Notes: generated by a model from the sequence alone, not told the origin. 32,000 nt of DNA from Candidatus Scalindua sp. (GCA_031316235.1 JALDRA010000001.1:3090001-3122000), one strand, 5' to 3'; positions 2,005 through 30,712 are shown, counted from the stretch's first letter. Made by a program: numbers and translations.

Positions 2005-3219
2005 ATGTATACGTGTATTGCGAGAAAAATGAGTGCGGTAAGTAGTTTGCTGATGGTTGTTTTCCTGATAGTAGTGACTGGTTGTGAAAAGGCAAAAAAT
2101 CATGTTGAGACGGGGCAGGCATTGCTTGATCAGGGTAAAGTTGAGGAGGCCTCGGTTGAATTCAAAAAGGCAGTAGAAAATGATCCCAAACTGGCAGAGG
2201 CGTATTTTAATCTGGGAAACGCCTATGTAAAGAAACAGATGTTTGATGAGGCGATCGAGAATTATAGAAAAGCGATCGGCATAAATCCTGAATACAAAGA
2301 TGCATATAAACAGATGGTCGACACTTTTGTTACAATCGGGCCACCTGCAACGGAGTTTGAGAAAAGGAGGAACAGGCTTGAAGAAGAGCCGGACAGCGTT
2401 ATGGCTCACCTGGATATGGGAGTATTTCTTCACAGTCTGGATCAGACAGAGAAGGCGATAGAGGAGTACGAACAGGCCCTGGCATTACAGCCTGAGAATC
2501 CTTTTATCTATTATAATCTGGCGGTCGCGTATCAGGATATGGCCCTCTTTGAGGAGAAGGCGATACCGCTTTATTTAAAGTCTATCGAATTAGATCCCTC
2601 GTATGACAAGGCTCACTACAACCTCGCGGTTTCCTACCTTAAGATCAACAACCTTGAAAAGGCAATGCAGGAATATGAGAAAACATTAGAAATTAATCCG
2701 AATTATGCTGACGTATATGTAGATTATGGGATGATCAGTATAAAAGGAAAAGACTTTGACAAGGCAATGGAACACTATGAAAAGGCCCTTGAGATCAATC
2801 CAAATTGCATAGCGGCATATTATCAGAAAGGTATTGTGTATGCTTTTCAGGAGAAATATGACGAGGCGTTGGCTCAAAACAAGAAGGTGTTAGAGCTGAA
2901 TCCTGACCACACAAACGCACAATTCAATATTGCTGTTGTCTACCACAAAAAGGGAGACCTGGAGAGGGCATTACAGGAATATAATAAGGTGATAATCATT
3001 GACCGAATTTACGAAGATGCTTATTATAATAGAGGTCAGGTATATGCATCAATGGGTGATACACCCAAGGCTTACAGCGATTACATAAGTTATAGCAGGA
3101 TTGTGAAAGCGAAGACTGGCAGAGAGGCGGCAGCAGTGGCATTGCGCGGTGTTGACGATGAGAAGGTCGAAAGCTTTATGGTTCCAAGTTTCAAGGACTG
3201 GCTGCTGGAATACGAATGA
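2005..3219 (+). CDS. TPR-repeat lipoprotein
   Basis: The ORF runs 1978..3219. ATG 2005 is preferred because GAGGAG lies 5 nt upstream. Signal peptide with lipobox VVTGC. Multiple 34-aa TPR units (AxxxYxxAIxxxP pattern). Confidence 0.8.
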   Translation: MYTCIARKMSAVSSLLMVVFLIVVTGCEKAKNHVETGQALLDQGKVEEASVEFKKAVENDPKLAEAYFNLGNAYVKKQMFDEAIENYRKAIGINPEYKDAYKQMVDTFVTIGPPATEFEKRRNRLEEEPDSVMAHLDMGVFLHSLDQTEKAIEEYEQALALQPENPFIYYNLAVAYQDMALFEEKAIPLYLKSIELDPSYDKAHYNLAVSYLKINNLEKAMQEYEKTLEINPNYADVYVDYGMISIKGKDFDKAMEHYEKALEINPNCIAAYYQKGIVYAFQEKYDEALAQNKKVLELNPDHTNAQFNIAVVYHKKGDLERALQEYNKVIIIDRIYEDAYYNRGQVYASMGDTPKAYSDYISYSRIVKAKTGREAAAVALRGVDDEKVESFMVPSFKDWLLEYE

Positions 3220-5087: not shown

Positions 5088-6446
5088 TTAATTTGAAGGG
5101 CTCACAACATCCTTGGCACATCTGAAGCCGACACTCTTGTTTCTCTCTCCCGGCTCTCCAAACATTCTTACCGCACAACGCATCTTATATACGTTGGCGG
5201 CAAACAGGGACCCCCCTCTTATGATACGTTTACCCGTTTTTGTTGCCGGGCCTTTTGGGTTTTTCCTGGGACTTTCGTAATAGTATGAAGGATGGTACCA
5301 GTCATTACACCATTCAGATACACTCCCTGACATATCACTGCAGCCATACACACTGTTACCTGATTCATAGCTTCCTACAGTGAGAATACCTTCCGGTCCA
5401 ATATTACAGTTCTTCATTTCCCACACATTACCCCAGGGGAATCTCCTCCCGTCAGTCCCTCTGGCAGCCTTTTCCCACTCTGCTTCAGTGGGAAGACGTT
5501 TTCCTGCCCATGCAGCATATGCATAAGCATCATACCAATCAACCCGTGTAACCGGATAGTCGGCATAATTATAATACTTATATTCGTATCCATTAAAAGG
5601 GCTGCCTGGTATATGGTTTTTATTAAGAGGCTCTCCAGGATAACATTTGCTGTGGTCACCTGTCCTCGTAATGTATTCCAGAAATTCCCAATATTGAGCG
5701 TTTGTTACCTCGTATTTATCAATATAATAGGCATCGAGAAATACCGTGTGCTGAGGCATCTCTTCCTGTATGAAATCCTCTTGACTGCTTCCCATGGTAA
5801 AATCAGAAGCAGGTACGAGGATCATCTCTTCCCACTTATCTCTATTCTTTTTCAGAGCTTCCATCATTTCGTCTTTTCTGTCAATGACTCTCTTTTCCGC
5901 AATCTTTTGTTTGTCATCTATCTCAAGAAACACCAATACTTTACCAATGAAATCATCAATCTTGTTTATCTGGTCTGATCCAGGTACCTGTTGACTCCTG
6001 CATATCTCTAAATGTTCTATAGCTTTCCTGTGGTTATTGAGCTTCCAGTACGTTCCGGCCATGTACCAATGTAGAGAAGCTAAATCAGGATTAAGCTCTT
6101 CAGCCTTTAAATATAATTCGAGGGCCCCCTTATAATCTCCCGAATTCTCACGAAGTGCATTCGCACTTTCTATGTATTTCCGGACTAGTAATGTTTTTTC
6201 ATCTTTAGGGTCCTCTTTCTCAGATTGAGGACTTTCCATTGCATCTTTCTGCGTTTGCATACTTGGATCTGCCGAAGGAACGAGCTCCAGTTTTTCCCCA
6301 TCCAGTGGGCAATACACGCTACTATCAGAAAATATTTTTTCGCATTTGGGACAGCTCTTTTTTTCTGCTCCCATTGATATCTCAGCGTATGTTATGGAAA
6401 CGAAAAGAAAGAGAATAATACGCAATGTTACAAAAACACTTTTCAA
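5088..6446 (-). CDS. FGE-sulfatase (SUMF1/EgtB/PvdO-type) domain protein with N-terminal signal/TM, zinc-ribbon-like CPKC..CPLDG and a TPR segment
   Basis: The C-terminal half has FGE-sulfatase hallmarks: YYIDKYEVTNAQY, RLPTEAEWEKAARG, RFPWGN, RGGS, VGFRCAKD. TTG start with AAGGAGG 5 nt upstream. Confidence 0.85.
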   Translation of the reverse strand: MKSVFVTLRIILFLFVSITYAEISMGAEKKSCPKCEKIFSDSSVYCPLDGEKLELVPSADPSMQTQKDAMESPQSEKEDPKDEKTLLVRKYIESANALRENSGDYKGALELYLKAEELNPDLASLHWYMAGTYWKLNNHRKAIEHLEICRSQQVPGSDQINKIDDFIGKVLVFLEIDDKQKIAEKRVIDRKDEMMEALKKNRDKWEEMILVPASDFTMGSSQEDFIQEEMPQHTVFLDAYYIDKYEVTNAQYWEFLEYITRTGDHSKCYPGEPLNKNHIPGSPFNGYEYKYYNYADYPVTRVDWYDAYAYAAWAGKRLPTEAEWEKAARGTDGRRFPWGNVWEMKNCNIGPEGILTVGSYESGNSVYGCSDMSGSVSEWCNDWYHPSYYYESPRKNPKGPATKTGKRIIRGGSLFAANVYKMRCAVRMFGEPGERNKSVGFRCAKDVVSPSN

Positions 6447-12298: not shown

Positions 12299-12314
12299 TG
12301 GCAACTATTTTGCG
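12299..12314 (+). promoter_or_regulatory. Sigma-54-type -24/-12 promoter match
   Basis: TGGCAACTATTTTGCG compared with consensus TGGCACG-N4-TTGCW: GG and GC are separated by exactly 10 nt, and both the TGGCA and TTGC cores are present. It lies between the sigma-54 activator gene and the next kinase operon. Confidence 0.4.
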
Positions 12315-12318
12315 ATTA

Positions 12319-12431
12319 TATACTAAAACCGATTTGGTTTTCGGTTTTTCTGAAAAACAAATCTTGGTTGCCGTTATACTCGCTCCGCTTTTACTCGGAT
12401 TTTATCCGAAAACTATTATGAAATGAGTATA
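12319..12431 (+). repeat. Structured ~112-bp intergenic repeat, copy A (most diverged)
   Basis: Aligns end to end with copies at 17789-17901, 25787-25898 and 30601-30712. Has TATACT...AGTATA termini. Confidence 0.85.
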
Positions 12432-14023: not shown

Positions 14024-14770
14024 TATCATGAAAAAACGGATCCTCTTCGTTGATGATGAACCGAATCTTTTGGATGGTTATAAACGTATATTGCGTAATA
14101 AACGTGATGAGTGGGAATTAGGTTTTGTCTGTAATGTTGATGCTGCTTTAGCCCGGTTAGAAGAAGAGAGTTTTGATGTCATTGTTTCAGATGTGAGAAT
14201 GCCGGGGAAGGATGGATTTGAATTTTTAAAGATACTCAAGGGGAATGAAAAGACCAGGCAGACACCTGTAGTTATTGTAACAGGCTGTAACGAAAATGAC
14301 CTCAAAAGTCGTGCCTTGACTCTGGGAGCTATGGATCTCCTGAACAAGCCCGTTGAGAGAGAAGATCTGGTTGCACGTCTTAACAGTATGATTCGTCTAA
14401 AATCATACCAGGATAATCTTGAAGACCAGAATAAAATACTTGAAGAGAGAGTCAGGGAGCGTACAGCTGAATTGGAGGATTCCAGGTTTGATATTATATG
14501 GAGACTTGGGAAATTAGCTGAATTCAGGGATGAAGATACAGGAAATCATGTCTTAAGGGTTGGCTCCTATTGTCGCACCCTCGCAGAGGTACTTGGGAAA
14601 AACAGGGATTTTGTTGAGATGATATTTTTGACAAGCCCTCTTCATGATATCGGCAAGGTAGGAGTGCCGGATAGTATTCTTTTGAAATGCGGGAAACTCG
14701 ATCCTGATGAGTGGGCAATAATGAAACAGCATTGTGAGATTGGTGCTGATATTTTTAATCTAGTGTCACG

Positions 14771-15466
14771 TCAATCATCAAGTGTCGGGTAAAGTTTAGA
14801 TAATCTTATCCTGGCATCAATCGTAGTAAACTGCCAGTTAGCCTTTGATTTCTTATTGTTTCTAAATTTCTGCCATGACTGTACTTCTTTTTTTATCTTT
14901 GTAATATTATCAATCCGCCTGTTTAAACACTGTCCAGCAAGTACATTCAACTCGATTTCTGCCATATTTAACCAGCTACCATGCTTTGGGGTGTAGACAA
15001 ACTCAAATTTATCTAAAATTTCCTTTGCTTTATCCGGCACAAACGTTTCATACAACGATCCAGCATCATGAGTATTCAAGTTGTCCATTACTAATGTTAT
15101 TTTGTTCGCATGACCATATGTATTAACAACGTCTTCCAGAAAATAGGACCAATCTTGTTTAGTTCTTCTTTCTGTTATTTTTACTATACGTTTCCCGGCC
15201 AATGGTTCAAAGGCCAGAAAAATATTACACACTCCACAACGCTTATATTCATAGTCATACTTAGCCGGTTGCCCTGGTGAAGCAGAAATTGGCATCTTTG
15301 TCTCTGATATAAGTTGCTTTGGTGACTCGTCCATACATATTACTGGATACTTAGCGTCATATGGACGTTTGTATACATCCAGCACCATTTCCATGTTAGC
15401 GACAAAACTGCCGTTTTCTTTTGGCGGTATTACCCAACCTTTTCGTTGCCAGGGCTTAATTTCGTT
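14771..15466 (-). CDS. IS630-family transposase, DDE catalytic part (orfB frame, -1 relative to orfA)
   Basis: The frame is open upstream of the listed ATG 15394 and reads KKNEIKPWQRKGWVIPP across the A8 run, a family-typical motif. DDE-type residues sit in ICMDES, VMDNLNTH and SWLNMAEIE. The stop codon lies inside the left terminal inverted repeat. Confidence 0.85.
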   Translation of the reverse strand, partial: NEIKPWQRKGWVIPPKENGSFVANMEMVLDVYKRPYDAKYPVICMDESPKQLISETKMPISASPGQPAKYDYEYKRCGVCNIFLAFEPLAGKRIVKITERRTKQDWSYFLEDVVNTYGHANKITLVMDNLNTHDAGSLYETFVPDKAKEILDKFEFVYTPKHGSWLNMAEIELNVLAGQCLNRRIDNITKIKKEVQSWQKFRNNKKSKANWQFTTIDARIRLSKLYPTLDD

Positions 15467-15903
15467 TTTTTTAATATACGGCGTATTGTTTCGTGGGAAA
15501 TTTTGTCAGTATATTCAAGTTCTACTACCTTGTCTGCTAATAATCGCAGAGACCATCTTGCAAAACCTTCTGGCGGCTCGCTACAACTTAACGCTACCAG
15601 GTGGGCTTCAAAGTCACCATCTGTCTTCTTTTCATATACTCGATTGCCTTTGCGTCCATTAAGCGCAACTTCAAAACCTTCTTCAACAAATCTTTTCTTT
15701 ACCCGGTCAATTTTCTTCATGCTTATTTTAAGAACACGGGCAATTTCAACGTTGGTCGAACGTTTGCCCTGATACTCACCCTGGTCGCAAGCTAATAATA
15801 GTAATGCATTGAGTATCTTTTGGGATCTATGCATCCCTTTAGACGTTAAAGCAACAAGCCTGTTACGTTCATCGCAATCAAGAGTTACTATGTATTTCTT
15901 CAT
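15430..15903 (-). CDS. IS630-family transposase, N-terminal HTH part (orfA)
   Basis: 157-aa ORF with HTH-like segments (RSTNVEIARVLKISMKKIDRVKKRF). It ends shortly after an A8 run. Confidence 0.85.
   Translation of the reverse strand: MKKYIVTLDCDERNRLVALTSKGMHRSQKILNALLLLACDQGEYQGKRSTNVEIARVLKISMKKIDRVKKRFVEEGFEVALNGRKGNRVYEKKTDGDFEAHLVALSCSEPPEGFARWSLRLLADKVVELEYTDKISHETIRRILKKTKLSPGNEKVG
15465..15472 (-). promoter_or_regulatory. A AAA AAA slippery site for a -1 frameshift joining orfA and orfB
   Basis: Plus-strand T8 equals minus-strand A8. In the orfA frame it reads TT-A AAA AAA-CG, the X XXY YYZ phasing. A -1 slip gives ..RRILKK-NEIKPW.. and a ~377-aa fusion protein. Confidence 0.6.
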
Positions 15904-16473
15904 AATCTAAATCTCCCGAAAAAAATTTAATTATGAAGATATTATAATCTATTATATACGACAATTCTAGCTTGACGTGACACTAGATGCCAAAACTATG
16001 CAGTCATTTTTTTCGTGGCGTGGTGACCGGTTTCATCCGGACAATAAAAGGAGTTACAATCCGCTTCATAAAATGGCTGCCTCTATTGCAATGTCACATC
16101 ATGAAAGATGGGACGGTAAAGGATACCCTGAAGGTCTGTCAGGAACTGAGATACCCCTTGAGTCCCGAATAGCTGCAATAGCAGATGTATACGATGCTCT
16201 GAGTTCTGTACGTCCATATAAGGAGGCTTTACCGGAAAGCAAGGTAATTGAGATTATGGAGAGTGAGCGGAGCAACCATTTTGATCCTGATGTGTATAAG
16301 GCATTTGAGGAGTCTTTTGATAAATTTAGAATAATTCGGGCAGAATTTGCCGATAATAATCATGAATCAGTTATTCATCAATAGTTTTGAGACCAGAATA
16401 ATCATTGATTCCTCTTTTTAATGGCATTTTCCTGGGTACGGAATAAATTTTCTTGTAATGAAAGCTATATGAA

Positions 16474-17775
16474 ATGAGAAGAATTCTCTTTGTAGATGAT
16501 GAACCGGAGATCCTTCAGGAATTTAAGCGAATGCTTCAACCCATGAGCCGGGAATGGGGTATGTCATTTGCCATTGGTGGAGAAGAAGCGCTGGATTTTA
16601 TGTCAAAGTCTGATTTTGATGTTGTTGTATCTGATATGCGTATGCCGAAAATGGATGGGCTGGAACTCCTTAATGAGGTTATGGAGAGATATCCCGATGT
16701 TGTACGCATTGTCCTTTCAGAGGATTCTGATAGAGACGTATTGTTACAATCTGTTAAATGTTCACATCAGCATTTGAAGAAACCGTGCAATATAGATACG
16801 GTCAAATATGTCATAACGCGGACATGCAAACTTAAGGATTTGTTGCAGAATGAGGCATTGAGAAAAATAGTGACAGGGATAAAGAAGTTGCCGAGTCTCC
16901 CGGCTTTGTACGGAATGATTGTTAAAGAGATGCAGTCTCCTGACGCATCTATTAAAAAAGTTGGCTATATTATTTCTCAAGATGTTTCAATGTCGGCAAA
17001 GATTTTACAGGTTGTTAATTCTGCCTACTTTGGTCTTCCACGGAAAATTTCTGATCCGCAGCAGGCATCGGTATATTTGGGTATAGAGACGTTAAAGGCT
17101 CTCGTCCTCTCCGTTCATGTGTTTTCATCATTTGCTGAAGATACAAAATTGTATGGAGTTTCCTTGAGAGAGATATTGGGACACTGCCTGCTGGTGGGGA
17201 GGCTGGCAAAGGAGATTGCACGCAGTGAAAAGGCGGAAACAAATATATTGGAAGAGGCATTGATAGCGGGAGTGCTGCACGATATAGGAAAGTTGATTTT
17301 GTTACAGCTTCCTGATCAGAACAGACAGGTAGAGGAACTGATCGAAACAACTGGTGTGAGTTCTGTAGAGTTGGAATATGAGGTCATGAAGAGCTCTCAT
17401 GCTGAACTGGGGGCATATTTATTAGGACTGTGGGGGCTCCCTGATAGTATCATTGAAATAGTGGCATTTCATCACAATCCATCAAAACTGCTGGAGGGTA
17501 TGTTTACAGAGACAGGTCTCTCGTGTGAAGATGAAGGAATTGTCAGGTCTGGCAAAGGGCATCCCGTCACACAATCTTCCGGAAAATATTTAATAGAATT
17601 CACCACACTGACTGCAGTACATGTCGCAAATGCCTTCTTGACTCAGAAGGAGATTACTCGAGAAACAACTGTCTTTTCACACATTGACCAACGGTATTTA
17701 AAAACGCTTAATTTGAAAGACAGGTTGCCTGTATGGTTAGAGCAGTATCACAAAATAATGCGGGAACAGATCTAA
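16474..17775 (+). CDS. Response regulator with REC + HDOD output domain
   Basis: REC (MRRILFVDDEPEIL..VVSDMRMPKMDG) followed by HDOD motifs (LPSLPALY, VNSAYFGLPRKI, LGIETLKALVL, GVLHDIGKLILL). Confidence 0.88.
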   Translation: MRRILFVDDEPEILQEFKRMLQPMSREWGMSFAIGGEEALDFMSKSDFDVVVSDMRMPKMDGLELLNEVMERYPDVVRIVLSEDSDRDVLLQSVKCSHQHLKKPCNIDTVKYVITRTCKLKDLLQNEALRKIVTGIKKLPSLPALYGMIVKEMQSPDASIKKVGYIISQDVSMSAKILQVVNSAYFGLPRKISDPQQASVYLGIETLKALVLSVHVFSSFAEDTKLYGVSLREILGHCLLVGRLAKEIARSEKAETNILEEALIAGVLHDIGKLILLQLPDQNRQVEELIETTGVSSVELEYEVMKSSHAELGAYLLGLWGLPDSIIEIVAFHHNPSKLLEGMFTETGLSCEDEGIVRSGKGHPVTQSSGKYLIEFTTLTAVHVANAFLTQKEITRETTVFSHIDQRYLKTLNLKDRLPVWLEQYHKIMREQI

Positions 17776-17788
17776 GAATTTGCACAAC

Positions 17789-17901
17789 TATACTCATCTC
17801 ATATTGGTTTTCTGATAAAATCCGAGATAAAATTGAGCGAGTATACCAGCAACCAAGATTTGGTTTCCGGTAAAACCGAAAACCAAATCGGTTTTAGTAT
17901 A
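17789..17901 (-). repeat. Structured ~112-bp intergenic repeat, copy B (inverted orientation)
   Basis: Its reverse complement matches copy C over the full length. The 33-nt main hairpin is identical. Confidence 0.9.
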
Positions 17902-18107
17902 TTCAATCACTTGAGTATGCTTCACCGTGAAATCTGAAATCATGACTTGATTGGCAAATTATCACGGAAAGCCATTTCATAATTACCAGTTATAGTAAAT
18001 TGAAAATCAGCGGCATGGATCGGTTAAGATCTCAAATTGTAATTTTTAAACAAATGTTTTTTTATTGAATATCTGGCAATGATCATTATCTTGAAAGGTT
18101 TTATGGT

Positions 18108-19412
18108 ATGAGAAGGATTCTCTTTGTAGATGATGAGGCGAATGTACTTCAAGGGTTAAAAAGAATGCTGCGTAAAATGCGCTACGAATGGGATACAGAG
18201 TATGTAAGCAGTGGAAAAGAAGCGCTGGATTGCATGGCCAAATCTCCATTTGATGTTGTTGTTTCAGATATGAGGATGCCGAGAATGGATGGTGTGGAAC
18301 TCCTTGGTACTGTTATGGAGCAATATCCGGAAACTGTCCGCATCATACTTTCTGGTCATTCTGATAAAGGGATGATAATGAAGACCGTAAAGTGTACGCA
18401 TCAGTTTTTAGTAAAGCCCTGTGATGCTGAAACTGTCAGGTACACCATAGAACGTGCCTGTAAACTTCAGGACCTTCTCAGAGATGAGAAACTGAAAAAG
18501 ATAGTAGCTGGCATAAAGGACTTGCCCAGTCTGCCCTCATTATACGGGATGATTGTCAAGGAGATGCAATCACCTGATGCTTCTATCAGGAAAGTAGGAG
18601 AAATTATCTCTCAGGATGTCTCAATGTCAGCAAAGGTCTTGCAGATTGTTAATTCAGCCTACTTCGGCCTTCCCAGGAAGTTAACAGACCCGCAACAGGC
18701 CGCAGTTTATTTAGGTATAGAAACCTTAAAGGCACTTGTACTTTCTATTCATGTTTTTTCTTCTTTTACAAAAGAGGCCGAGTTATTTGGGTTATCGTTT
18801 ACTCAAATGTGGAGACATAGTTTGATGGTAGCCAGGCTTGCAAAGGAGATTGCACGAGCTGAAAAGGTGGAGACGAAGGCTTTAGAGGAAGCATTTATTT
18901 CCGGGATATTGCATGACATAGGGAAATTAATTTTATTGAAGGTTCCTGGTCAATACAGGAAGATGAAGGATTTTGTTGAAATCACTGGGGGGAGTTCCCT
19001 GGAAGCCGAACAAGCTGTTTTGAAAACATCTCACGCGGAATTAGGAGCTTATTTATTAGGGCTCTGGGGGTTACCTGATCGCATCATTGAAACAATAGCC
19101 TTTCATCATGAACCCTCAAAGTTGATTGAAAATATATTCGTCAAATTAAACAAAGCATCTGATAATGGCGGGGAGAAGAGCGCTCCTGACGAGGGCCTGG
19201 TAAATTTGAAATCGATTAAAAACTATTCAACCGAATTTGCCACAATGTTATCCGTGCATGTGGCAAATGCATTGATGATGCAGGGGAAATGCACCCCGGA
19301 AACTACTGTTTTTCCCAACCTTGATATGTTATTTATCAGGACACTCAAATTATCAGACAAGTTACCCGAGTGGGTTTCACGTTATAACGATATAGTGAAG
19401 GAAGAGGAATAA
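18108..19412 (+). CDS. Response regulator with REC + HDOD output domain, tandem paralog of 16474..17775
   Basis: Same architecture and length (434 vs 433 aa). About two-thirds of residues are identical by eye, with many synonymous nucleotide differences. Confidence 0.88.
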   Translation: MRRILFVDDEANVLQGLKRMLRKMRYEWDTEYVSSGKEALDCMAKSPFDVVVSDMRMPRMDGVELLGTVMEQYPETVRIILSGHSDKGMIMKTVKCTHQFLVKPCDAETVRYTIERACKLQDLLRDEKLKKIVAGIKDLPSLPSLYGMIVKEMQSPDASIRKVGEIISQDVSMSAKVLQIVNSAYFGLPRKLTDPQQAAVYLGIETLKALVLSIHVFSSFTKEAELFGLSFTQMWRHSLMVARLAKEIARAEKVETKALEEAFISGILHDIGKLILLKVPGQYRKMKDFVEITGGSSLEAEQAVLKTSHAELGAYLLGLWGLPDRIIETIAFHHEPSKLIENIFVKLNKASDNGGEKSAPDEGLVNLKSIKNYSTEFATMLSVHVANALMMQGKCTPETTVFPNLDMLFIRTLKLSDKLPEWVSRYNDIVKEEE

Positions 19413-19415
19413 GCA

Positions 19416-22250
19416 ATGTTTAAGATCAGAGATAAAATGCTGGTTGCTTTTCTTCCGGTCTTAATTGTACCCATGTGTATTGTTGTCGCGCTGTTTTGCT
19501 TCTATACAATAAGTTATATGAAAGAGAACAGGGAAGACGAGATAACTCAGCAGACAAGAAAAAAAAAAGATAAAGTGATGCAGCATCTCTGTTCTGGAGA
19601 GAAAGACGTTCTTCTGCTGAGTAAGAATAGAGCCATTTTTAACTTAACAGATGCTGTTGACAGGAAAGATATTGAGCACATAGATTATTGCAGGACGGTA
19701 GTAGAAGATCTCTTTAAAGATTTTTTCGAAAGTAACAGGAACTATTGCCAGATACGGTATATTGATGAATCAGGTATGGAAATCGTTCGAGTTGAAATGG
19801 ATTCAATTGCTCCTCCTGGGAGACTTCAGGACAAAAGTCAGAGCTATTATGTACAGGAGATGTTGAAGCTGAAAGATGGAGATGTCTATGTTTCAGAACT
19901 TGACTTAAACAGGGAGCGGGGAATTATTGAAACACCTCACAGGCCAATGATAAGATATGCGGCTCCCGTCTTCAACAGTTCAGGCCGGGGGAGAGGGGGA
20001 GTTGTCCTGAACTCCAGGGCAGATTCTCAACTCTTTCCTGCATTAAAACAGGAATTCCATGAGAAGTCGGATACATTTTTGATTGATAGAGACGGTTCTT
20101 ATCTTATCCACCCTGATGGGGCAAAATGTTGGGGTGGCCAGTCTGATCTGAATACCAATGAGAACCTGAAAAATGATTTTTCCCCGGAGATATCGTCCCT
20201 TCTTCTGTCAGGGGAATCGGGAGATGTCCTGGTTAATGATCAGTATTACAGCTATATGCCGATTTCTTTTGATCAGTCAGATATCGGGAGATTTTGGGTA
20301 TTGGCTGTGAGTCTTCCAAAAGCTGCTCTCTATTCACCTGTCTATATTTCATGTATTCAGCTCGGGACTTCCGTATTACTTATGCTCGCCGTTGTTATCA
20401 CAGCGTTCTTTTTATTGTCCCGGAGAGTAACAAAACCCTTAAATGAGCTAGTCAAAGGCGTTATAAAATTAACAGAAACAGATTCAGACTTTCATATCCC
20501 TATTACGTCGAATGATGAGATTGCTTTTTTATGTTTTTCGTTTAACAAGGTCTTATATAAGTTAGGCAAGGCGAACAACCAGTTACAGGATTACGCAGAG
20601 CACCTGGAGAAAAAAATTGAAATAAAAACTGAGGAGATCTTTGGTAAGGCCAGGCAGCAAAAACTTGTAGCTGAGATTGGAAAATTACTCTGGTCCAATA
20701 TGAATCTTGAAGTCACAATGCACAGGGTGGTTAAGCTTGTTGCCAAGACCTTACGTATGGAATTCTGCAACATACTTCTGCTGGATAAATCACAGCCGGT
20801 TTTTACTATGGCGAGTGGTGTTGGAGGGGAAGACGGACTCGATGGCCACACCCAGGTCAGTGCTGGAGTGGAGACTCATGCCGGTTATACCCTGAAAGAA
20901 CAAAAACCGGTCGTAGTGAGGGATTTAAGAACGGAAACACGTTTTTCCGATTCACCACTTCTCAGAGAACGTGGGGTTGTTTCAGGCCTCAGTGTTGCCA
21001 TGGTAGTAAAAGGGAAAGCAATAGGTGTGGTAGTGGGCTATACAAAAAAAGAGAGGGTTTTTTCTAAATCTGATATTAATTTCCTGGAATCAGTAGGTCA
21101 AATTATGGCAGCAGCCATCGATCGGAAGAATGCTGAATATGAGATTGTCAGGAGAAAAGAATTTACTGATAAGTTAATAGAAACAGCACAGGATGCAATC
21201 GTTTGTATTGATGAAAATGGAATTATTACTATCTGGAACAAAGCAGCCGAAGTGATTTTCGGGTATTCACATGAAGAGATTATCGGACAGCAAATATTGA
21301 CTATTATTCCTGAAAAATATAAGGAAGATCATAAAAAAGGGCTGAAACTGTTTCTTGAGACCAATGAAACAAGAATTACTGGTAAAACGGTTGAAGTTGA
21401 CGGGAGAAAAAAGAATGGGGAAGAGATACCGATTGACGTGTCTCTTTCCTATCAGAAGGTGGATAACGGGAAATATATATTTACCGCTATAATACGTGAT
21501 ATATCATTCCAGAAAGAGGTAAAAAGGAGATTGCGTGAGAATGCAAGAAGTTTAAAGAAGGTGAACAGGGAATTAGGTGATTTTGTCTATATTGTTTCAC
21601 ATGATTTAAAAGAACCTCTGTTTGCAATTGACGGATACGTTTCGAGATTGTCAAAGATTTGTGGTGATTCACTTGATGAAAGAGGTAAACGCTATATTGA
21701 TAGAATTAAGGTGAATACGAAGGTAATGTCTAACAGGATTCACGAGCTTCTGGAAGTCATTAAGGTAGGGATGGTTGTATATAATTTCGCTGATCACAAG
21801 AGTAAAATTATTGTTGATACTATTGCCCACGAACTGGAAAGCCTTTTAGATAGAGAAAGAATTGAACTCTTCATCCAGGATGACCTGCCTACTGTTTTCT
21901 GTGACCCGAAAAGACTGAAGGATGTATTTTGGAATTTACTTACAAATGCAATCAAATTTATGGGTGAAAATGATACTCGGAAGATTAAGATCGGGTGTGA
22001 AAGAGAAAATGGCCACTACAAGTTCTTTGTCGAGGATAGCGGCATTGGGATAAAAGAGGAGTACCAGAAACAGATCTTTAAAATATTCAGGCGGCTAAAG
22101 GACATAGATGCGGAAGGAACCGGTATCGGTCTGGCAATAGTAAAAAAAATTATCGGCCTTCACCACGGAAAATTGTGGGTGGAAAGTCCGATTCATGACG
22201 GAAGGGGAGCAAAATTCTGTTTCACAATACCAACAGCTAATGAGTACTGA
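19416..22250 (+). CDS. Multidomain membrane sensor histidine kinase (periplasmic sensor - HAMP - GAF - PAS - HisKA - HATPase)
   Basis: Two TM helices flank a ~280-aa extracytoplasmic domain. HAMP-like RRVTKPLNELVKGV, a GAF-like region, PAS (AQDAIVCIDENGIITIWNKAAEVIFGY), H-box VSHDLKEPL, G-box EGTGIGLAIVKKI. The start is 4 nt after the upstream stop. Confidence 0.88.
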   Translation: MFKIRDKMLVAFLPVLIVPMCIVVALFCFYTISYMKENREDEITQQTRKKKDKVMQHLCSGEKDVLLLSKNRAIFNLTDAVDRKDIEHIDYCRTVVEDLFKDFFESNRNYCQIRYIDESGMEIVRVEMDSIAPPGRLQDKSQSYYVQEMLKLKDGDVYVSELDLNRERGIIETPHRPMIRYAAPVFNSSGRGRGGVVLNSRADSQLFPALKQEFHEKSDTFLIDRDGSYLIHPDGAKCWGGQSDLNTNENLKNDFSPEISSLLLSGESGDVLVNDQYYSYMPISFDQSDIGRFWVLAVSLPKAALYSPVYISCIQLGTSVLLMLAVVITAFFLLSRRVTKPLNELVKGVIKLTETDSDFHIPITSNDEIAFLCFSFNKVLYKLGKANNQLQDYAEHLEKKIEIKTEEIFGKARQQKLVAEIGKLLWSNMNLEVTMHRVVKLVAKTLRMEFCNILLLDKSQPVFTMASGVGGEDGLDGHTQVSAGVETHAGYTLKEQKPVVVRDLRTETRFSDSPLLRERGVVSGLSVAMVVKGKAIGVVVGYTKKERVFSKSDINFLESVGQIMAAAIDRKNAEYEIVRRKEFTDKLIETAQDAIVCIDENGIITIWNKAAEVIFGYSHEEIIGQQILTIIPEKYKEDHKKGLKLFLETNETRITGKTVEVDGRKKNGEEIPIDVSLSYQKVDNGKYIFTAIIRDISFQKEVKRRLRENARSLKKVNRELGDFVYIVSHDLKEPLFAIDGYVSRLSKICGDSLDERGKRYIDRIKVNTKVMSNRIHELLEVIKVGMVVYNFADHKSKIIVDTIAHELESLLDRERIELFIQDDLPTVFCDPKRLKDVFWNLLTNAIKFMGENDTRKIKIGCERENGHYKFFVEDSGIGIKEEYQKQIFKIFRRLKDIDAEGTGIGLAIVKKIIGLHHGKLWVESPIHDGRGAKFCFTIPTANEY

Positions 22251-22318
22251 TAGTCATTTCAAATGGATAGAGAAGGAAATGGGCGAATATATTGAAACAC
22301 TATGCAGGTTTGGTGGAT

Positions 22319-23182
22319 ATGCTGAAGGAAACCAAGAAAAAAGTCGTCCTCATAGAAGATGATTCTGATCATGCTGAGTTAATTGTTGATGTACTTCATG
22401 ATGAGGACGTCCACAATGAAATAGTATTATTAAAAGATGGACAAAAGGCAGTCAACTATTTTCAGAATAGAGGAGACAGTGAGAACCGTTTGCTATCTTC
22501 GCAAATTGATTTAGTGTTATTAGATATCAATCTGCCTAAGGTTCAAGGTTTGAATGTTCTCAAATTAATTAAGAGTCTGCCGGAGTTTGGTTCAGTGCCG
22601 ATAGTGGTTTTGACAACGAGTTCAGATTCTCATACAATTGAAAGAGTCTACAGGTATGGGGCGAACGGTTATGTAACGAAACCGATTTCTTATGATGATT
22701 TTGTAGAGAAAATAAGGATGCTGAAAGAGTATTGGTTGAATACTGAGAAATTGTTGTCACAGAAGAAAGCAAAGAAAGGAAGAGTTCTTCTTGCTGATGA
22801 TGATGAGATCTTCCTGCGGGTGACTTCTGCATTGCTTCGCCGTGAGGGGTATGAATGTGTTTGCGCAACCGATGCGGAGACCGTCATGGAGAATCTGAAA
22901 TCATGTTATTACGATCTTTTGATCTCTGACATCTACATGCCTGGGAACGAGGAATTAGAGCTTATTAAATATCTTCAAGGTGTTGGAGATGTTATACCCG
23001 CAATACTGGCGTCAGGGAATCCATCGATACACTCTTCGATTCAATCAATACAATATCCGGTTCTCGCTTATATGTTCAAACCATTTGCCTTTGACAAATT
23101 CCTGGCCCAGGTGAAAATATCAGTTGAAAGATATAGAGGAAGGGGTGAGAAAACAAAAAGAGAGAAACCTGTTGTTCTTTAA
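22319..23182 (+). CDS. Tandem double-receiver (REC-REC) protein without an output domain
   Basis: REC1: KKVVLIEDD..VLLDINLP..YVTKP. REC2: RVLLADDD..LLISDIYMPG..MFKP. The start is uncertain (TTG 22292 or ATG 22319). Confidence 0.8.
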   Translation: MLKETKKKVVLIEDDSDHAELIVDVLHDEDVHNEIVLLKDGQKAVNYFQNRGDSENRLLSSQIDLVLLDINLPKVQGLNVLKLIKSLPEFGSVPIVVLTTSSDSHTIERVYRYGANGYVTKPISYDDFVEKIRMLKEYWLNTEKLLSQKKAKKGRVLLADDDEIFLRVTSALLRREGYECVCATDAETVMENLKSCYYDLLISDIYMPGNEELELIKYLQGVGDVIPAILASGNPSIHSSIQSIQYPVLAYMFKPFAFDKFLAQVKISVERYRGRGEKTKREKPVVL

Positions 23183-23407
23183 CGTAACATTTTCAACCTG
23201 GAATAAGGGTTGCTCTCGATCGGAAAGCCTGCAGCGCTGAACAACTGCTTCTGAAAGGTGTCTGGTGTCTGCTGTAATAACAATAAGAAAAATATATTCA
23301 ATCACCCTGAAACCTGGCGTACGGAACACCGTTGCTGTAAATGGGGATTCACAGAGACGAGAGTCATGAGGTTTCTGGATCTGCCCAGGATGTTTTACCC
23401 CTATAAA

Positions 23408-23590
23408 CTACCTGTTCTCTCCTTTGAAATCATCATCGTTCAAGACATGATCAATTTGTGCCAACAACTCACGGCAAAACTCTTTTTCCGTATCGCTGCC
23501 GCTCAAAATAGCTGCGAGTTTGACTGTTTCTTCTTTGTTCAGTCCTATGGTAACCTCTGGTAAAACTCTTTTTCTATCAACAACTCTCAT
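23408..23590 (-). CDS. Small hypothetical protein (60 aa)
   Basis: Protein-like composition (MRVVDRKRVLPEVTIGLNKEETVKLAAILSG..), unlike the overlapping plus-strand ORF. No family recognised. Confidence 0.35.
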   Translation of the reverse strand: MRVVDRKRVLPEVTIGLNKEETVKLAAILSGSDTEKEFCRELLAQIDHVLNDDDFKGENR

Positions 23591-23738
23591 TTCACACACT
23601 CTTTTCTCATTTTCATGTTGCGGCTGGCTTACCTAATATTTCTGCAGGGTGCCCCAGTCCCTCAATTATCCTTGAATACTGTAAACTTTAACACCAGAAT
23701 TCTGGTATTGCAATGATAATTACCATAAATTTTATATA

Positions 23739-23767
23739 TTGACCGCTCCTGCCATTACTGATAAAAT
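23739..23767 (+). promoter_or_regulatory. Candidate sigma-70 promoter for the cupin-SHOCT gene
   Basis: TTGACC (23739-44), 17 nt, TAAAAT (23762-67). A second -10-like TGTATAAT lies at 23777-23784. Confidence 0.4.
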
Positions 23768-23807
23768 CGACCGCCATGTATAATAGATTTTTTGCAGGAG
23801 AAAAGAA

Positions 23808-24695
23808 TTGATAAAATCATACTGTTTCGCATATTTATTGAAAGGATTTACGTTATACCTGCTTTTTCTTTTATTAGCCGGCGGCTGCAGGACGCTGGAT
23901 ACACCTGCTGAATTTGTTGATTCGTTAAGGAGCCCCACCTCTTTTCCTGACCTGTTTTTCCCAATGGTAAAAGATGTAGATGAAATAATACAGGGGAATG
24001 AACTTCTAGAGGCTGAAACTGTTAAGATTACCCCCATGGGTAAGAATAAAAGTGCGAGTATCCATATCGTCCAGATTCGAGAGGGAGCTGAGATGGGTTT
24101 CTATTCGCATAACTTACATGATGAGCTGGTGTATGTTCATAAGGGCGGAGGCATAATAGAGCTTAATAATACGCGTTACAAGATGAAAGAAGGTATGGTG
24201 CTGATAATACCCAGGAAAACCTGGCACAAGTTGATTAATACGGGAGAAGGTTCTCTCGCCACGCTCTCTTTTTTTTCTCCTCCATTTAATAATGAAGATA
24301 TCAAGGTCCTGAAAGAAACTAAAATAGCAAGGAAAAAGAAAAAAACTATTTATGACAAGGCCATGAAAAAGGATGAAAAATCAGGGGGAGAGGAATCAGA
24401 AGGGAAGAAAAAATGGCTGGGTTTGTGGGATACAAAAGATGAGAACGCCAGCGTGGAAGAGGGTGGACAACCTATTGATGAAGTTGAAGAGCAGAAGATA
24501 CTGGTATTGACGGATGAAGGAAAGCGAAGGATTGCGGAAGTTCAGGAGAAAATGAAAGAAAAGGAAAAGGTATTGCTTGAAAAAATGATTATTGGTGAAA
24601 GGATCAAGGTTTTACAGAAATTAAAGGTTGAGGGACTGATCAGTCAGGAAGAGTTTGAATTGAAAAGAGACGAGATAATTAATGAGAGCAAATAG
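23808..24695 (+). CDS. Cupin-domain lipoprotein with a charged linker and C-terminal SHOCT-like motif
   Basis: TTG start with AGGAG 7 nt upstream. Lipobox LLAGGC. Cupin motifs (FYSHNLHDELVYVHKGGG; MVLIIPRKTWHKLIN). K/E-rich linker. C-terminus LKVEGLISQEEFELKRDEII resembles SHOCT. Confidence 0.75.
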   Translation: MIKSYCFAYLLKGFTLYLLFLLLAGGCRTLDTPAEFVDSLRSPTSFPDLFFPMVKDVDEIIQGNELLEAETVKITPMGKNKSASIHIVQIREGAEMGFYSHNLHDELVYVHKGGGIIELNNTRYKMKEGMVLIIPRKTWHKLINTGEGSLATLSFFSPPFNNEDIKVLKETKIARKKKKTIYDKAMKKDEKSGGEESEGKKKWLGLWDTKDENASVEEGGQPIDEVEEQKILVLTDEGKRRIAEVQEKMKEKEKVLLEKMIIGERIKVLQKLKVEGLISQEEFELKRDEIINESK

Positions 24696-24818
24696 TAGTA
24701 TGGTCTTTCCTGCTTTTCTCTTGTGGAATATGAGGAGGTGAGAAGCAGAATTTCCAGATGGAGGTGTCCCGGTATGGTTGCATTGTGACCGTCGGGTAAC
24801 GATTTAAGGAAAAATTGA

Positions 24819-25580
24819 ATGGAAATCCTTTTGACAAATGATGATGGTATTTATTCTCCCGGTATCCTGTTGCTGAAACAAGCGCTGTTGTCTATCGGTT
24901 CCGTGACTGTTGTCGCGCCTGATGTTCAACAAAGCGGTGTCGGACATTCAATAACATTCAGCCATCCGTTACGGGTACGGGATGTTCACCTCGATAGTGA
25001 ATTTGTTGGTTACGGGATTGATGGTTCACCCGCAGATTGCGTAAAGATTGGAGTCCGGCAAATCATGAAGGAACAACCTGATTTATTGGTTGCGGGTATA
25101 AATATTGGCGCGAATGTTGGTATTAATGTCTTGTATTCAGGAACGGTTGCAGCTGCGATCGAGGGTGCAGTCCTGGGTATTCCTGCTGTTGCAGTCTCGT
25201 TGGAAATTTCGGAATTGCCGCCGGATGTTAAGGGTGCTGCTGATATTGCAGGGGAGATGATTCGGCACATAGTTACGAGAGAGATTCCCAGAGGTACCCT
25301 GCTCAATGTTAATATTCCGCTTATTCCCAAGAAGGAGATTAAGGGGGTAAGGATTACGAAACAGTATTCGGGTGATTTTCATGAACATTATGAACGGCGT
25401 ACCGACCCGCGTGGGTCTGCTTATTATTGGTTGGCGGGAACAGGCTGGCCGGAAGAAGAGGTTACCGGTACGGATATGCATGCACTGAAGGGGGGATACA
25501 TCTCGATTACTCCGCTGAAGTACGATTTGACTGACAATGGATTTTTTAAGGAATTAGAGAGCTGGGATATGGAACTTTGA
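24819..25580 (+). CDS. surE: 5'/3'-nucleotidase SurE
   Basis: Canonical N-terminus MEILLTNDDGIYSPGI, GINIGANVG and YSGTVAAA motifs. 253 aa. Confidence 0.93.
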   Translation: MEILLTNDDGIYSPGILLLKQALLSIGSVTVVAPDVQQSGVGHSITFSHPLRVRDVHLDSEFVGYGIDGSPADCVKIGVRQIMKEQPDLLVAGINIGANVGINVLYSGTVAAAIEGAVLGIPAVAVSLEISELPPDVKGAADIAGEMIRHIVTREIPRGTLLNVNIPLIPKKEIKGVRITKQYSGDFHEHYERRTDPRGSAYYWLAGTGWPEEEVTGTDMHALKGGYISITPLKYDLTDNGFFKELESWDMEL

Positions 25581-25786
25581 CAATTACGCACACTCTACCC
25601 ATTGCAGAGTTATTTTCGGTTTTCAGAGGAACGATATCTTATTCTCAATCACAAAGTCCCCGGCGTTTTTTGCCGGAGGAAAATCTTCAACCTGGTATTA
25701 CCTGGTCCCGGGTTCTGTTCAATCGAAGATCAAAATTCCACGCAGGCTCATGCCCTGAAATTCCAAAGACCATTTTGCAATGGGGA

Positions 25787-25898
25787 TATACTAAAACCGA
25801 TTTGGTTTTCGGTTTTACCGGAAACCAAATCTTGGTGAAGGTATACTCGCTCAATTTTATCTCGGATTTTATCCGAAAACCATTGTAAGATGAGTATA
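25787..25898 (+). repeat. Structured ~112-bp intergenic repeat, copy C (taken as reference)
   Basis: TATACTAAAACCGATTTGGTTTTCGGTTTTACCGGAAACCAAATCTTGGTGAAGGTATACTCGCTCAATTTTATCTCGGATTTTATCCGAAAACCATTGTAAGATGAGTATA. It sits between the convergent surE and gspK-like genes. Confidence 0.9.
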
Positions 25899-29924: not shown

Positions 29925-29979
29925 TAGTGCGTGAAGGTAAACCCTGTGATTGAACGAAAACTGCCTGGATACAGGGCGC

Positions 29980-30035
29980 GTAATAATTGCGTAACCGGAT
30001 CGTACAAATGTACTTGAGGATTACGTAATTATTAC
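29980..30035. other. Imperfect 15-bp inverted repeat in the gspH-like/gspI-like spacer
   Basis: GTAATAATTGCGTAA (29980-29994) and TTACGTAATTATTAC (30021-30035) match at 14 of 15 positions. The inner loop contains a GTAC-AAAT-GTAC hairpin. Confidence 0.5.
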
Positions 30036-30070
30036 AGCAACGCGGTAGATGGGTAATTCTCGTTCAACCA

Positions 30071-30544
30071 CTAATTACCTGAAATTTGCCCCGTATAGCT
30101 GATTATTCTCAGATTTTTTGAGTTTCCCTGCCTGTTTTTAATAGTAATCGTATCTGTACCAAAGGCCGAAAAGTCTGCAGAACCATTCGGATCAAAGTTA
30201 ACGGTGCTGGTTCCCGTAGTCCATGTCCCTGAACCCGTATCAAATTCTATACTATCTGGAAGGAACTCTTCTCTTCCTAATTCACTGTTATTTTCATCTT
30301 TGATTAACAGCCTGGAGTATGTTGAGTCGAAAACAAGCAGTCGTGTTTTTCTGGAATTAATAGCCATTGTTCTGGCAGCCAGGGCTCTTGCTTGAACGAT
30401 GCGTGCACCTTTACTCAAACTTTGCCCTTTCAGGAAAGGTGTTATTGCTGGCACGGTTATCACACCTACCAAAACAATGATTGCAATTACGACAAGCATT
30501 TCTACGAGTGTGAAACCGTATCTGGTATCTGTGAGTGATTTCAA
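30071..30544 (-). CDS. Prepilin-type N-terminal domain protein, GspH/FimT-like minor pseudopilin
   Basis: RYG/FTLVEMLVVIAIIVLVG, then SKGARIVQARALAARTMAI, typical of the GspH/FimT family. 157 aa. Confidence 0.75.
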   Translation of the reverse strand: MKSLTDTRYGFTLVEMLVVIAIIVLVGVITVPAITPFLKGQSLSKGARIVQARALAARTMAINSRKTRLLVFDSTYSRLLIKDENNSELGREEFLPDSIEFDTGSGTWTTGTSTVNFDPNGSADFSAFGTDTITIKNRQGNSKNLRIISYTGQISGN

Positions 30545-30600: not shown

Positions 30601-30712
30601 TATACTAAAAACGATTTGGTTTTCGGTTTTACTGGAAACCAGATCTTGGTGAAGGTATACTCGCTCAATTTTATCTCGGATTCTATCCGAAATCCAGTAT
30701 GAGATGAGTATA
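30601..30712 (+). repeat. Structured ~112-bp intergenic repeat, copy D
   Basis: About 90% identical to copy C by eye. It lies in the gap between the major (G-like) and minor (H-like) pseudopilin genes, antisense to that operon. Confidence 0.9.

Follow-up and report, generated by a model that had tools for sequence, protein, structure and literature searches.

A probable 113-bp MITE with TA target duplication and IS630-like ends in the intergenic DNA of Candidatus Scalindua

Why does a hairpin-rich repeat that no gene explains recur four times between genes in a short piece of a Candidatus Scalindua genome? The question concerns positions 25787 to 25898 of a 32,000-nucleotide stretch (GCA_031316235.1, JALDRA010000001.1:3090001-3122000; the whole stretch is referred to here as the window). 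An earlier note, made from the sequence alone, had offered a nonautonomous transposon, a REP-like element, and a small-RNA/terminator module as possible identities. Our analysis favors, with a probability of about 0.9, a MITE with bipartite terminal inverted repeats (TIRs) and TA target duplication that is presumably mobilized in trans by an IS630-family transposase. All four copies reported by the earlier note were located, at 112 to 113 bp each:

Copy A, 12319-12431, + strand: 113 bp, with the flanking TA counted at each end; short form, TTGCCGT backbone variant.
Copy B, 17789-17901, - strand: 113 bp; short form, TTGCTGG variant.
Copy C, 25787-25898, + strand: 112 bp; short form, GAAGG variant.
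Copy D, 30601-30712, + strand: 112 bp; short form, GAAGG variant.

Chance is excluded as an explanation for these copies, since the invariant 19-mer CGATTTGGTTTTCGGTTTT occurs 4 times in the window versus 0.02 expected and a 32-nt degenerate pattern of the repeat occurs 4 times versus 0.00 expected. Pairwise identity ranges from 0.84 to 0.95 over 112 core columns, with a run of 51 nt that is 100% identical between copies B and C, and the G+C content of the copies is 34 to 36% versus 41% for the window. The division into two subvariants, TTGCnGT and GAAGG, made by eye on four copies, is real: these are the two main backbone variants across the whole 113-bp family.

Across about 100 full copies, TATACT and AGTATA mark the exact limits of homology, beyond which the flanks are unrelated; the element proper is TACT...AGTA, about 109 bp in the short form. 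Its TIRs, which the earlier note had recognized but described as short, are about 26 bp long, imperfect, and bipartite (TATAC-N11-TGGTTTTCGG), with the terminal TATACT (6 bases) and the inner TGGTTTTCGG (10 bases) at the same offset in both. Identity between the 5' end and the reverse complement of the 3' end, TATACTCATCTCATAATGGTTTTCGG, is 18/26. Copy C is laid out as follows:

5' TIR, 25787-25812, + strand: TATACTAAAACCGATTTGGTTTTCGG; its first TA belongs to the target duplication.
Hairpin 1, 25799-25831, + strand: 15-bp stem with a 3-nt loop; inner TIR motif TGGTTTTCGG in the left arm, its inverted copy in the right.
Central TATACTCGCTC, 25842-25852, + strand: pairs with the 3'-end GAGATGAGTATA; in longer members, the GC-rich module G2 lies here.
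Hairpin 2, 25862-25876, + strand: TCGGA-TTTTA-TCCGA; its loop holds module G3 in other genomes.
3' TIR, 25873-25898, + strand: CCGAAAACCATTGTAAGATGAGTATA; the target duplication is completed by its last TA.

Each structural part singled out by eye is therein, from the 15-bp stem with its 3-nt loop and the small TCGGA-TTTTA-TCCGA hairpin to the TATACT at the 5' end, the further TATACT in the center, and the AGTATA at the 3' end. The predicted RNA fold of copy C reaches -40.3 kcal/mol on the + strand (z = -6.6 versus shuffles) and -34.6 kcal/mol on the - strand (z = -4.8). Two other loci (L061, ~6275-6331; L063, ~3043-3099) hold a 57-bp perfect fold-back made of the left end, hairpin 1, and the inverted left end, and the existence of this miniature version suggests that two small palindromic units were joined to make the 113-bp unit. 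The second half (TATACTCGCTC...GAGATGAGTATA) forms another such unit, which explains the central TATACT. With hairpin 1 consisting of the inner TIR motif and its inverted copy, and with a fold-back version on hand, the hairpins are best understood as intrinsic to the architecture of the element rather than as a host RNA gene.

The genes of the window specify multiheme cytochromes, two-component and sigma-54 regulators, SurE, and a type II/IV pseudopilin cluster, and the contexts that the earlier note had assigned to the four copies proved correct. Downstream of an NtrC-type activator gene lies a sigma-54-type -24/-12 match (TGGCAACTATTTTGC, 12299-12313, + strand), and copy A starts 5 bp later, so that this copy probably lies in the leader, or at the transcript start, of a histidine-kinase operon. 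The match is kept as TGGCAACGGTTTTGC in the orthologous intergenic region of L203, a region without a copy of the element. Copy B, on the strand opposite two tandem HDOD response-regulator paralogs, is found 14 bp past the stop codon of the first one. These paralogs (16474-17775 and 18108-19412, + strand), spaced 1634 bp apart on either side of copy B, have 71 to 77% nucleotide identity; at the syntenic locus L203, there is a single response-regulator/HDOD gene of that type. Copy C separates the convergent SurE and LTD/GspK-like genes, and the ORFs that overlap it (103 and 83 aa) have no Pfam match. Copy D occupies the gap between the GspG-like and GspH-like pseudopilin genes of an operon, again on the strand opposite both.

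A scan of representative genomes (596 Gb) with the 19-mer returned at least 119 blocks of 8 kb. At least 104 blocks holding the exact 19-mer fall in four Scalinduaceae genomes together, with at least 53 in Scalindua sp. RBC_AMX3, at least 32 in Scalindua sp. SCAELEC01, at least 18 in the Scalinduaceae genome CBDCUS01, and at least 1 in a Planctomycetota MAG (MFD09964). Among the matches listed, 15 blocks come from unrelated taxa; each is a single 19-mer, none matches the full element, and their number is roughly the chance expectation for 596 Gb. A profile built from copies A to D gave 170 matches on the listed blocks, 100 of them full-length copies, and two more syntenic genomes (L202 and L203) also hold copies. 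From the block counts, the 100 full copies, and the copies in L202 and L203, it follows that the family is genome-wide and spread across the Scalindua lineage, with on the order of 10^2 copies per genome. The earlier note had guessed at such a genome-wide family, and the guess holds. Almost all of the full copies (99/100) are intergenic in surroundings where about 70% of the DNA lies in long ORFs, and neighboring genes are on the strand of the element in 78 of 156 cases, i.e., with no orientation bias.

Duplication of a TA target, also guessed from the sequence of the window, was borne out by five comparisons of filled and empty sites, one of which involves copy D. The filled site reads GATATGA-TA-[element]-TA-ATCTTAAAA, and the empty orthologous sites have a single TA: GATATAC-TA-ACCGCAAAA in L203 and GAGATAT-TA-ACCGCAAAA in L202. 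Three further orthologous pairs of filled and empty sites (L024/L043, L044/L025, and L057/L076) have the same TA pattern. In L006 and L011, a copy is nested in another repeat, reading CCTTG-TA-[element]-TA-CCTGG versus CCTTG-TA-CCTGG in more than 20 unfilled paralogs.

Occupancy of sites C and D is different between syntenic loci, and this is probably so for site A as well. Site C is filled in the window and in L202, whose orthologous copy is 92.9% identical to copy C (126-bp alignment including short flanks), and has no copy in L201 or L203. Site D is filled in the window alone among the syntenic loci compared. In L203, site A yielded no copy; its intergenic DNA has diverged too far for an exact empty site to be delimited. 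Three contigs (L120 to L122) from a SurE-based scan of metagenome contigs were considered as empty C sites; they are without the repeat, but their downstream synteny is broken, and they were set aside as not clean. In L077 (429-2605, - strand), a MITE of another family (family 3, described below) splits a copy of the 113-bp family at a TA and itself holds a group II intron with a reverse transcriptase ORF (580-1827) and matches to Rfam RF01999 and RF00029. The repeats also break short-read assemblies, as exemplified by a Logan contig (L200, SRR28338161) that is 100% identical to window positions 17875 to 25811, starting inside copy B and ending inside copy C. Nested copies, a split copy, and assembly breaks are behavior typical of mobile DNA.

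Which enzyme might move the element? IS630 elements occur in anammox genomes (PMC7814187). The syntenic locus L201 carries, at 15947-17068, an IS630-family IS of 1.1 kb with one 343-aa ORF containing HTH_29, HTH_33, and DDE_3 domains. Three independent copies of this IS (in L201, L204, and L205) set its limits as TATAC...GAGTATA, the same termini as those of the element. Read inward, the right end of the IS is TATACTCATTACGAAATGGTTTTAGG, which matches the 3' end of the element (family consensus) at 21/26 positions and the 5' end at 19/26; over positions 6 to 26, 16/21 are identical, a value reached by 0 of 100,000 shuffles. The left end of the IS is a poorer match (13-14/26), and because of this and the 19/26 at the 5' end of the element, the partner assignment is based on similarity rather than identity. 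A Candidatus Scalindua contig of 4,149,782 bp has a recorded transposase, annotated as IS630 family, with 82% identity to that of the L201 IS. The window's LTD/GspK-like protein is identical to one annotated in a Candidatus Scalindua sp. MAG on a contig of equal length, so this transposase most likely belongs to the window's own genome.

Neither the window nor 0.95 Mb of repeat-bearing loci contained an IS of the partner type. An autonomous copy was likewise sought in these 0.95 Mb, where paired 5' and 3' ends all lie within 245 bp of each other, with one exception, the copy split by the nested MITE and group II intron. Long multicopy segments in the repeat-bearing loci were considered as possible transposase genes and turned out to be an HDOD regulator and a group II intron instead. 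The window does have an IS630-family IS of its own (14758-15988, - strand; 1231 bp, with 30-nt inverted repeats starting TCTAGTGTCACGTCAA). Its transposase is split into an HTH ORF (15430-15903) and a DDE_3 ORF (14771-15394), its target is likely CTAG/TA, and it splits a response-regulator/HD-domain gene (14028-14792 plus 15977-16384). This IS was rejected as the partner on two grounds: only 8-12 of 26 positions agree between its ends (TAGTGTCACGTCAA...) and the element, and a BLASTP comparison of its transposase with that of the candidate partner gave no significant similarity (E = 0.56).

The element is most likely moved, then, by a transposase of the IS630 family, as the resemblance of the ends would suggest. 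Under the mechanism that we propose, the 343-aa DDE transposase would be supplied in trans by the 1.1-kb IS with matching ends, bind both ends of the element, and cut it out; the excised element would be pasted into a new TA, which would be duplicated. Copies inserted into genes would be lost by selection, leaving survivors that are intergenic and in either orientation. The element has the features of a MITE: it is smaller than ~500 bp, lacks coding capacity, has TIRs, TA duplication, and IS630-like ends, and is dispersed in polymorphic copies. Of the three identities considered at the outset, the nonautonomous transposon is the one that empty TA sites, copy number, and IS630-matching ends support.

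Two further MITE families are represented in the window:

Family-3 MITE, 25594-25788, + strand: decayed copy of the ~183-200-bp type; BLAST-significant over 25711-25788, with the left part aligned by eye.
Family-2 MITE, 29925-30077, - strand: unrelated, ~157 bp; TIR TAGTGTTTGAACGAAAAC..., TA flanks.

Family 3 has the same type of TIR, TATAC-N11-TGGTTTTCGG, and matches the right end of the IS at 21-22/26. Its copy in the window abuts copy C, and the terminal TA is common to both; the earlier description of copy C is amended in this respect, as copy C adjoins another, related repeat (about 25594-25788). This family-3 copy carries a G+C-rich hairpin at about 25655-25680 (TCCCCGGCG...GCCGGAGGA) that resembles module G2 of the long copies of the 113-bp family. 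Family 2 gave 61 BLAST hits in the fetched Scalindua loci, with 46 near-full copies. One of its copies is present at the orthologous site in L201 (8176-8307), and those in L006 and L011 host the nested 113-bp element.

Many copies outside the window have lengths of ~140, ~167, or ~200 bp (up to ~204 bp), the extra length consisting of G+C-rich hairpin modules; long forms include L049 2932-3133, L105 5326-5526, L058 7079-7272, and about 60 other copies (L001 to L119). The modules are palindromes of 27 to 33 nt, carried by none of copies A to D, and their positions are fixed: the loops of hairpins 1 and 2, the center of the element, and, in rare cases, a fourth site. Those in the loops lie exactly 3' of TTTTA, without duplication. 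They share the termini CCYGTCYG...CRGGCRGG, with the same palindrome in both loops, and by a crude classification, most presence/absence combinations of the three main modules exist. Some are tandemly duplicated (L059 and L024) and others nested in inverted orientation (L013, L017, and L006). Counts inside and outside the element were 58/0, 21/0, 5/0, 31/3, and 15/2, and no free module was found in about 100 kb of less biased sequence. Ordinary free-standing repeats were accordingly rejected as the main explanation, the modules almost never occurring outside the element. Either the modules are loop-targeting mini-palindromes, or the short forms arose by repeated hairpin deletion from an ancestor of ~200 bp. 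The precise placement of the modules in hairpin loops hints that the fold matters to something. One tentative and rather unlikely proposal is that they form a second layer of mobile DNA that inserts without duplication 3' of TTTTA in single-stranded loops, possibly by HUH/single-stranded DNA chemistry on extruded hairpins; related to it is the idea that the fold of the MITE is selected as RNA or single-stranded DNA. A fold under selection would explain why inserts occur only at loop tips, why two loops hold the same palindrome, and why the core is so well conserved.

Could the repeat instead be a nonmobile family of stand-alone structured small-RNA genes or a cis-regulatory or terminator motif? 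A stable two-hairpin fold and strictly intergenic positions are what such a family would display, but the other evidence makes it very improbable. Rfam 15, a search of which the earlier note had recommended, had no described RNA family to offer: there was no match at the gathering score in the window, in copy C, or in the long-form loci (best subthreshold hit, E = 0.97, 20 bits versus a cutoff of 100), the only Rfam matches in long-form loci being group II intron models elsewhere in the locus. RNAalifold on 97 copies found 12 weak pairs and 0 compensatory changes, in a comparison of little power because the copies are too alike (90 to 94%). In L112 and L097, CGG is replaced by TAG together with CCG by CTA in hairpin 1. 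Sigma-70 promoter matches were at shuffle level, with just two 9/12 matches inside copies, and a terminator scan made no hairpin-plus-T-run call inside any copy. TA duplications with empty sites, TIRs that match an IS, equally frequent orientations, and nesting in other repeats all speak against the nonmobile RNA family as well. Scarcely credible for the 113-bp unit is a REP/BIME-like or IS200/IS605-type palindrome moved as single-stranded DNA by an HUH tyrosine transposase (RAYT or TnpA). Elements of this type (IS200/IS605 and REP/RAYT) have neither TIRs nor target duplication. The 113-bp unit has both, with a duplication of 2 bp, and matches an IS630-family DDE element at its ends; its length (113 bp or more) and A+T richness (34 to 36% G+C) set it apart from the 20- to 40-bp G+C-rich REPs, and in a nonexhaustive look, no RAYT or TnpA gene was seen adjoining any copy. 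High copy number, intergenic location, and abundant hairpins are shared with HUH-type elements, and the insertion of GC-rich modules 3' of TTTTA without duplication resembles their chemistry; this reading is conceivable only for the modules. On these grounds (no Rfam match, orientation bias, or promoter and terminator signal above background, no compensatory pairs in the low-power comparison, and the presence of TIRs and TA duplication), neither the small-RNA/terminator nor the REP-like option of the earlier note is supported.

A further possibility overlaps the MITE reading: an element of MITE origin that has been adopted by the host, as a whole or in many of its copies, or whose fold is functionally constrained over its whole length. 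Candidate roles would be a module for RNA stability, processing, or attenuation when cotranscribed, or a protein-binding site. What lends it weight is conservation. The 112 core columns of an alignment of 97 copies (5 genomes) gave one consensus per genome, and among four genomes these consensus sequences are identical at 106 to 111/112 positions (95 to 99%), with copies differing by 4 to 6% from the consensus of their own genome, whereas orthologous coding DNA of the same genomes differs by 13 to 20%. Likewise, the orthologs of copy C in the window and L202 are more conserved than the flanking genes (82.6% and 85.7%). Conservation extends beyond the ends to the whole element, which a requirement for TIRs only would not obviously predict. 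The fold is predicted to be strong on both strands, more so on the + strand, the G-U pairs of hairpin 1 become C-A mismatches on the other strand, and inserts of longer copies at loop tips leave the stems intact. Copy A, being 5 bp past a sigma-54-type match conserved in L203, is probably transcribed, and individual copies may matter when they are. Against adoption by the host stand the lack of orientation bias relative to genes, the gain and loss of copies at orthologous sites, promoter and terminator matches at background, and the 0 compensatory changes among the 97 copies, whose similarity gives that count low power. Conservation, moreover, could also come from element-level selection for mobilization (inner transposase-binding motifs), gene conversion, or transfer between co-occurring species. 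We regard host adoption as unlikely.

The 113-bp family and at least two sister families litter the intergenic regions of Scalindua, where they give rise to spurious ORFs and may be taken for regulatory RNAs or promoters. Assembly and annotation of anammox MAGs would improve if these elements were masked, and their insertion polymorphisms would provide cheap strain or species markers for uncultured marine anammox populations. Copies in leaders (A) or operons (D) could change the expression of two-component and pilus genes.

In our literature search, we came across no account of MITEs from Scalindua or any other anammox bacterium, and the 113-bp family seems undescribed, though it is an ordinary kind of element. 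To our knowledge, no pairing of a MITE with an IS630 element has been described in Planctomycetota, which gives the present MITE and its candidate IS630 partner some interest. Its unusual aspects are limited to the modular architecture with loop-specific GC hairpins and the whole-length conservation, both mostly outside the window.

Several known repeats share part of this design. REPs are 20 to 40 bp long and G+C-rich, lack TIRs and target duplication, and are moved by HUH tyrosine transposases. Like REP/BIME sequences, the Scalindua element is intergenic, palindromic, and abundant, but it lacks the distinguishing features of REPs, which only its GC-rich inserts resemble. BOX elements of Streptococcus pneumoniae and ERIC/IRU elements of enterobacteria are intergenic repeats that are modular or bear insertions, are predicted to fold strongly, and vary in the number of internal modules, and the Scalindua element is similarly intergenic, modular, and strongly folded. 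We know of no clear evidence of TIRs or target duplication, and of no transposase, for BOX elements; the Scalindua modules, unlike tandem boxB units, are G+C-rich hairpins at fixed loop positions. The Correia elements of Neisseria (CREE/NEMIS) are 100 to 155 bp long, are often cotranscribed with neighboring genes, carry an IHF site and promoter elements, and undergo RNase III processing. The likeness to them is closer, both being A+T-rich MITEs with TIRs of ~26 bp starting with TATA, TA duplication, and size classes that arise from an internal segment. Promoter scans of the Scalindua element, unlike Correia elements with their promoters, are at background, and a candidate IS partner exists for it, whereas we know of no partner transposase for Correia elements.

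The closest analogue is RUP with IS630-Spn1 in S. pneumoniae. RUP is a noncoding intergenic repeat of ~107 bp, present in about 10^2 copies, that inserts at TA and into other mobile elements; its TIRs resemble those of an IS630-family IS of the same genome, and trans-mobilization has been argued with IS630-Spn1 (PMC2229807). The Scalindua element parallels RUP in its 112 to 113 bp, its TA target, its IS630-like ends, and its nesting in or beside other repeats. It departs from RUP in having no sequence similarity to it, in its host phylum (Planctomycetota, anammox bacteria), in its bipartite TIRs and two internal hairpins, and in the 113-, ~140-, ~167-, and ~200-bp forms that GC-rich hairpin modules generate.
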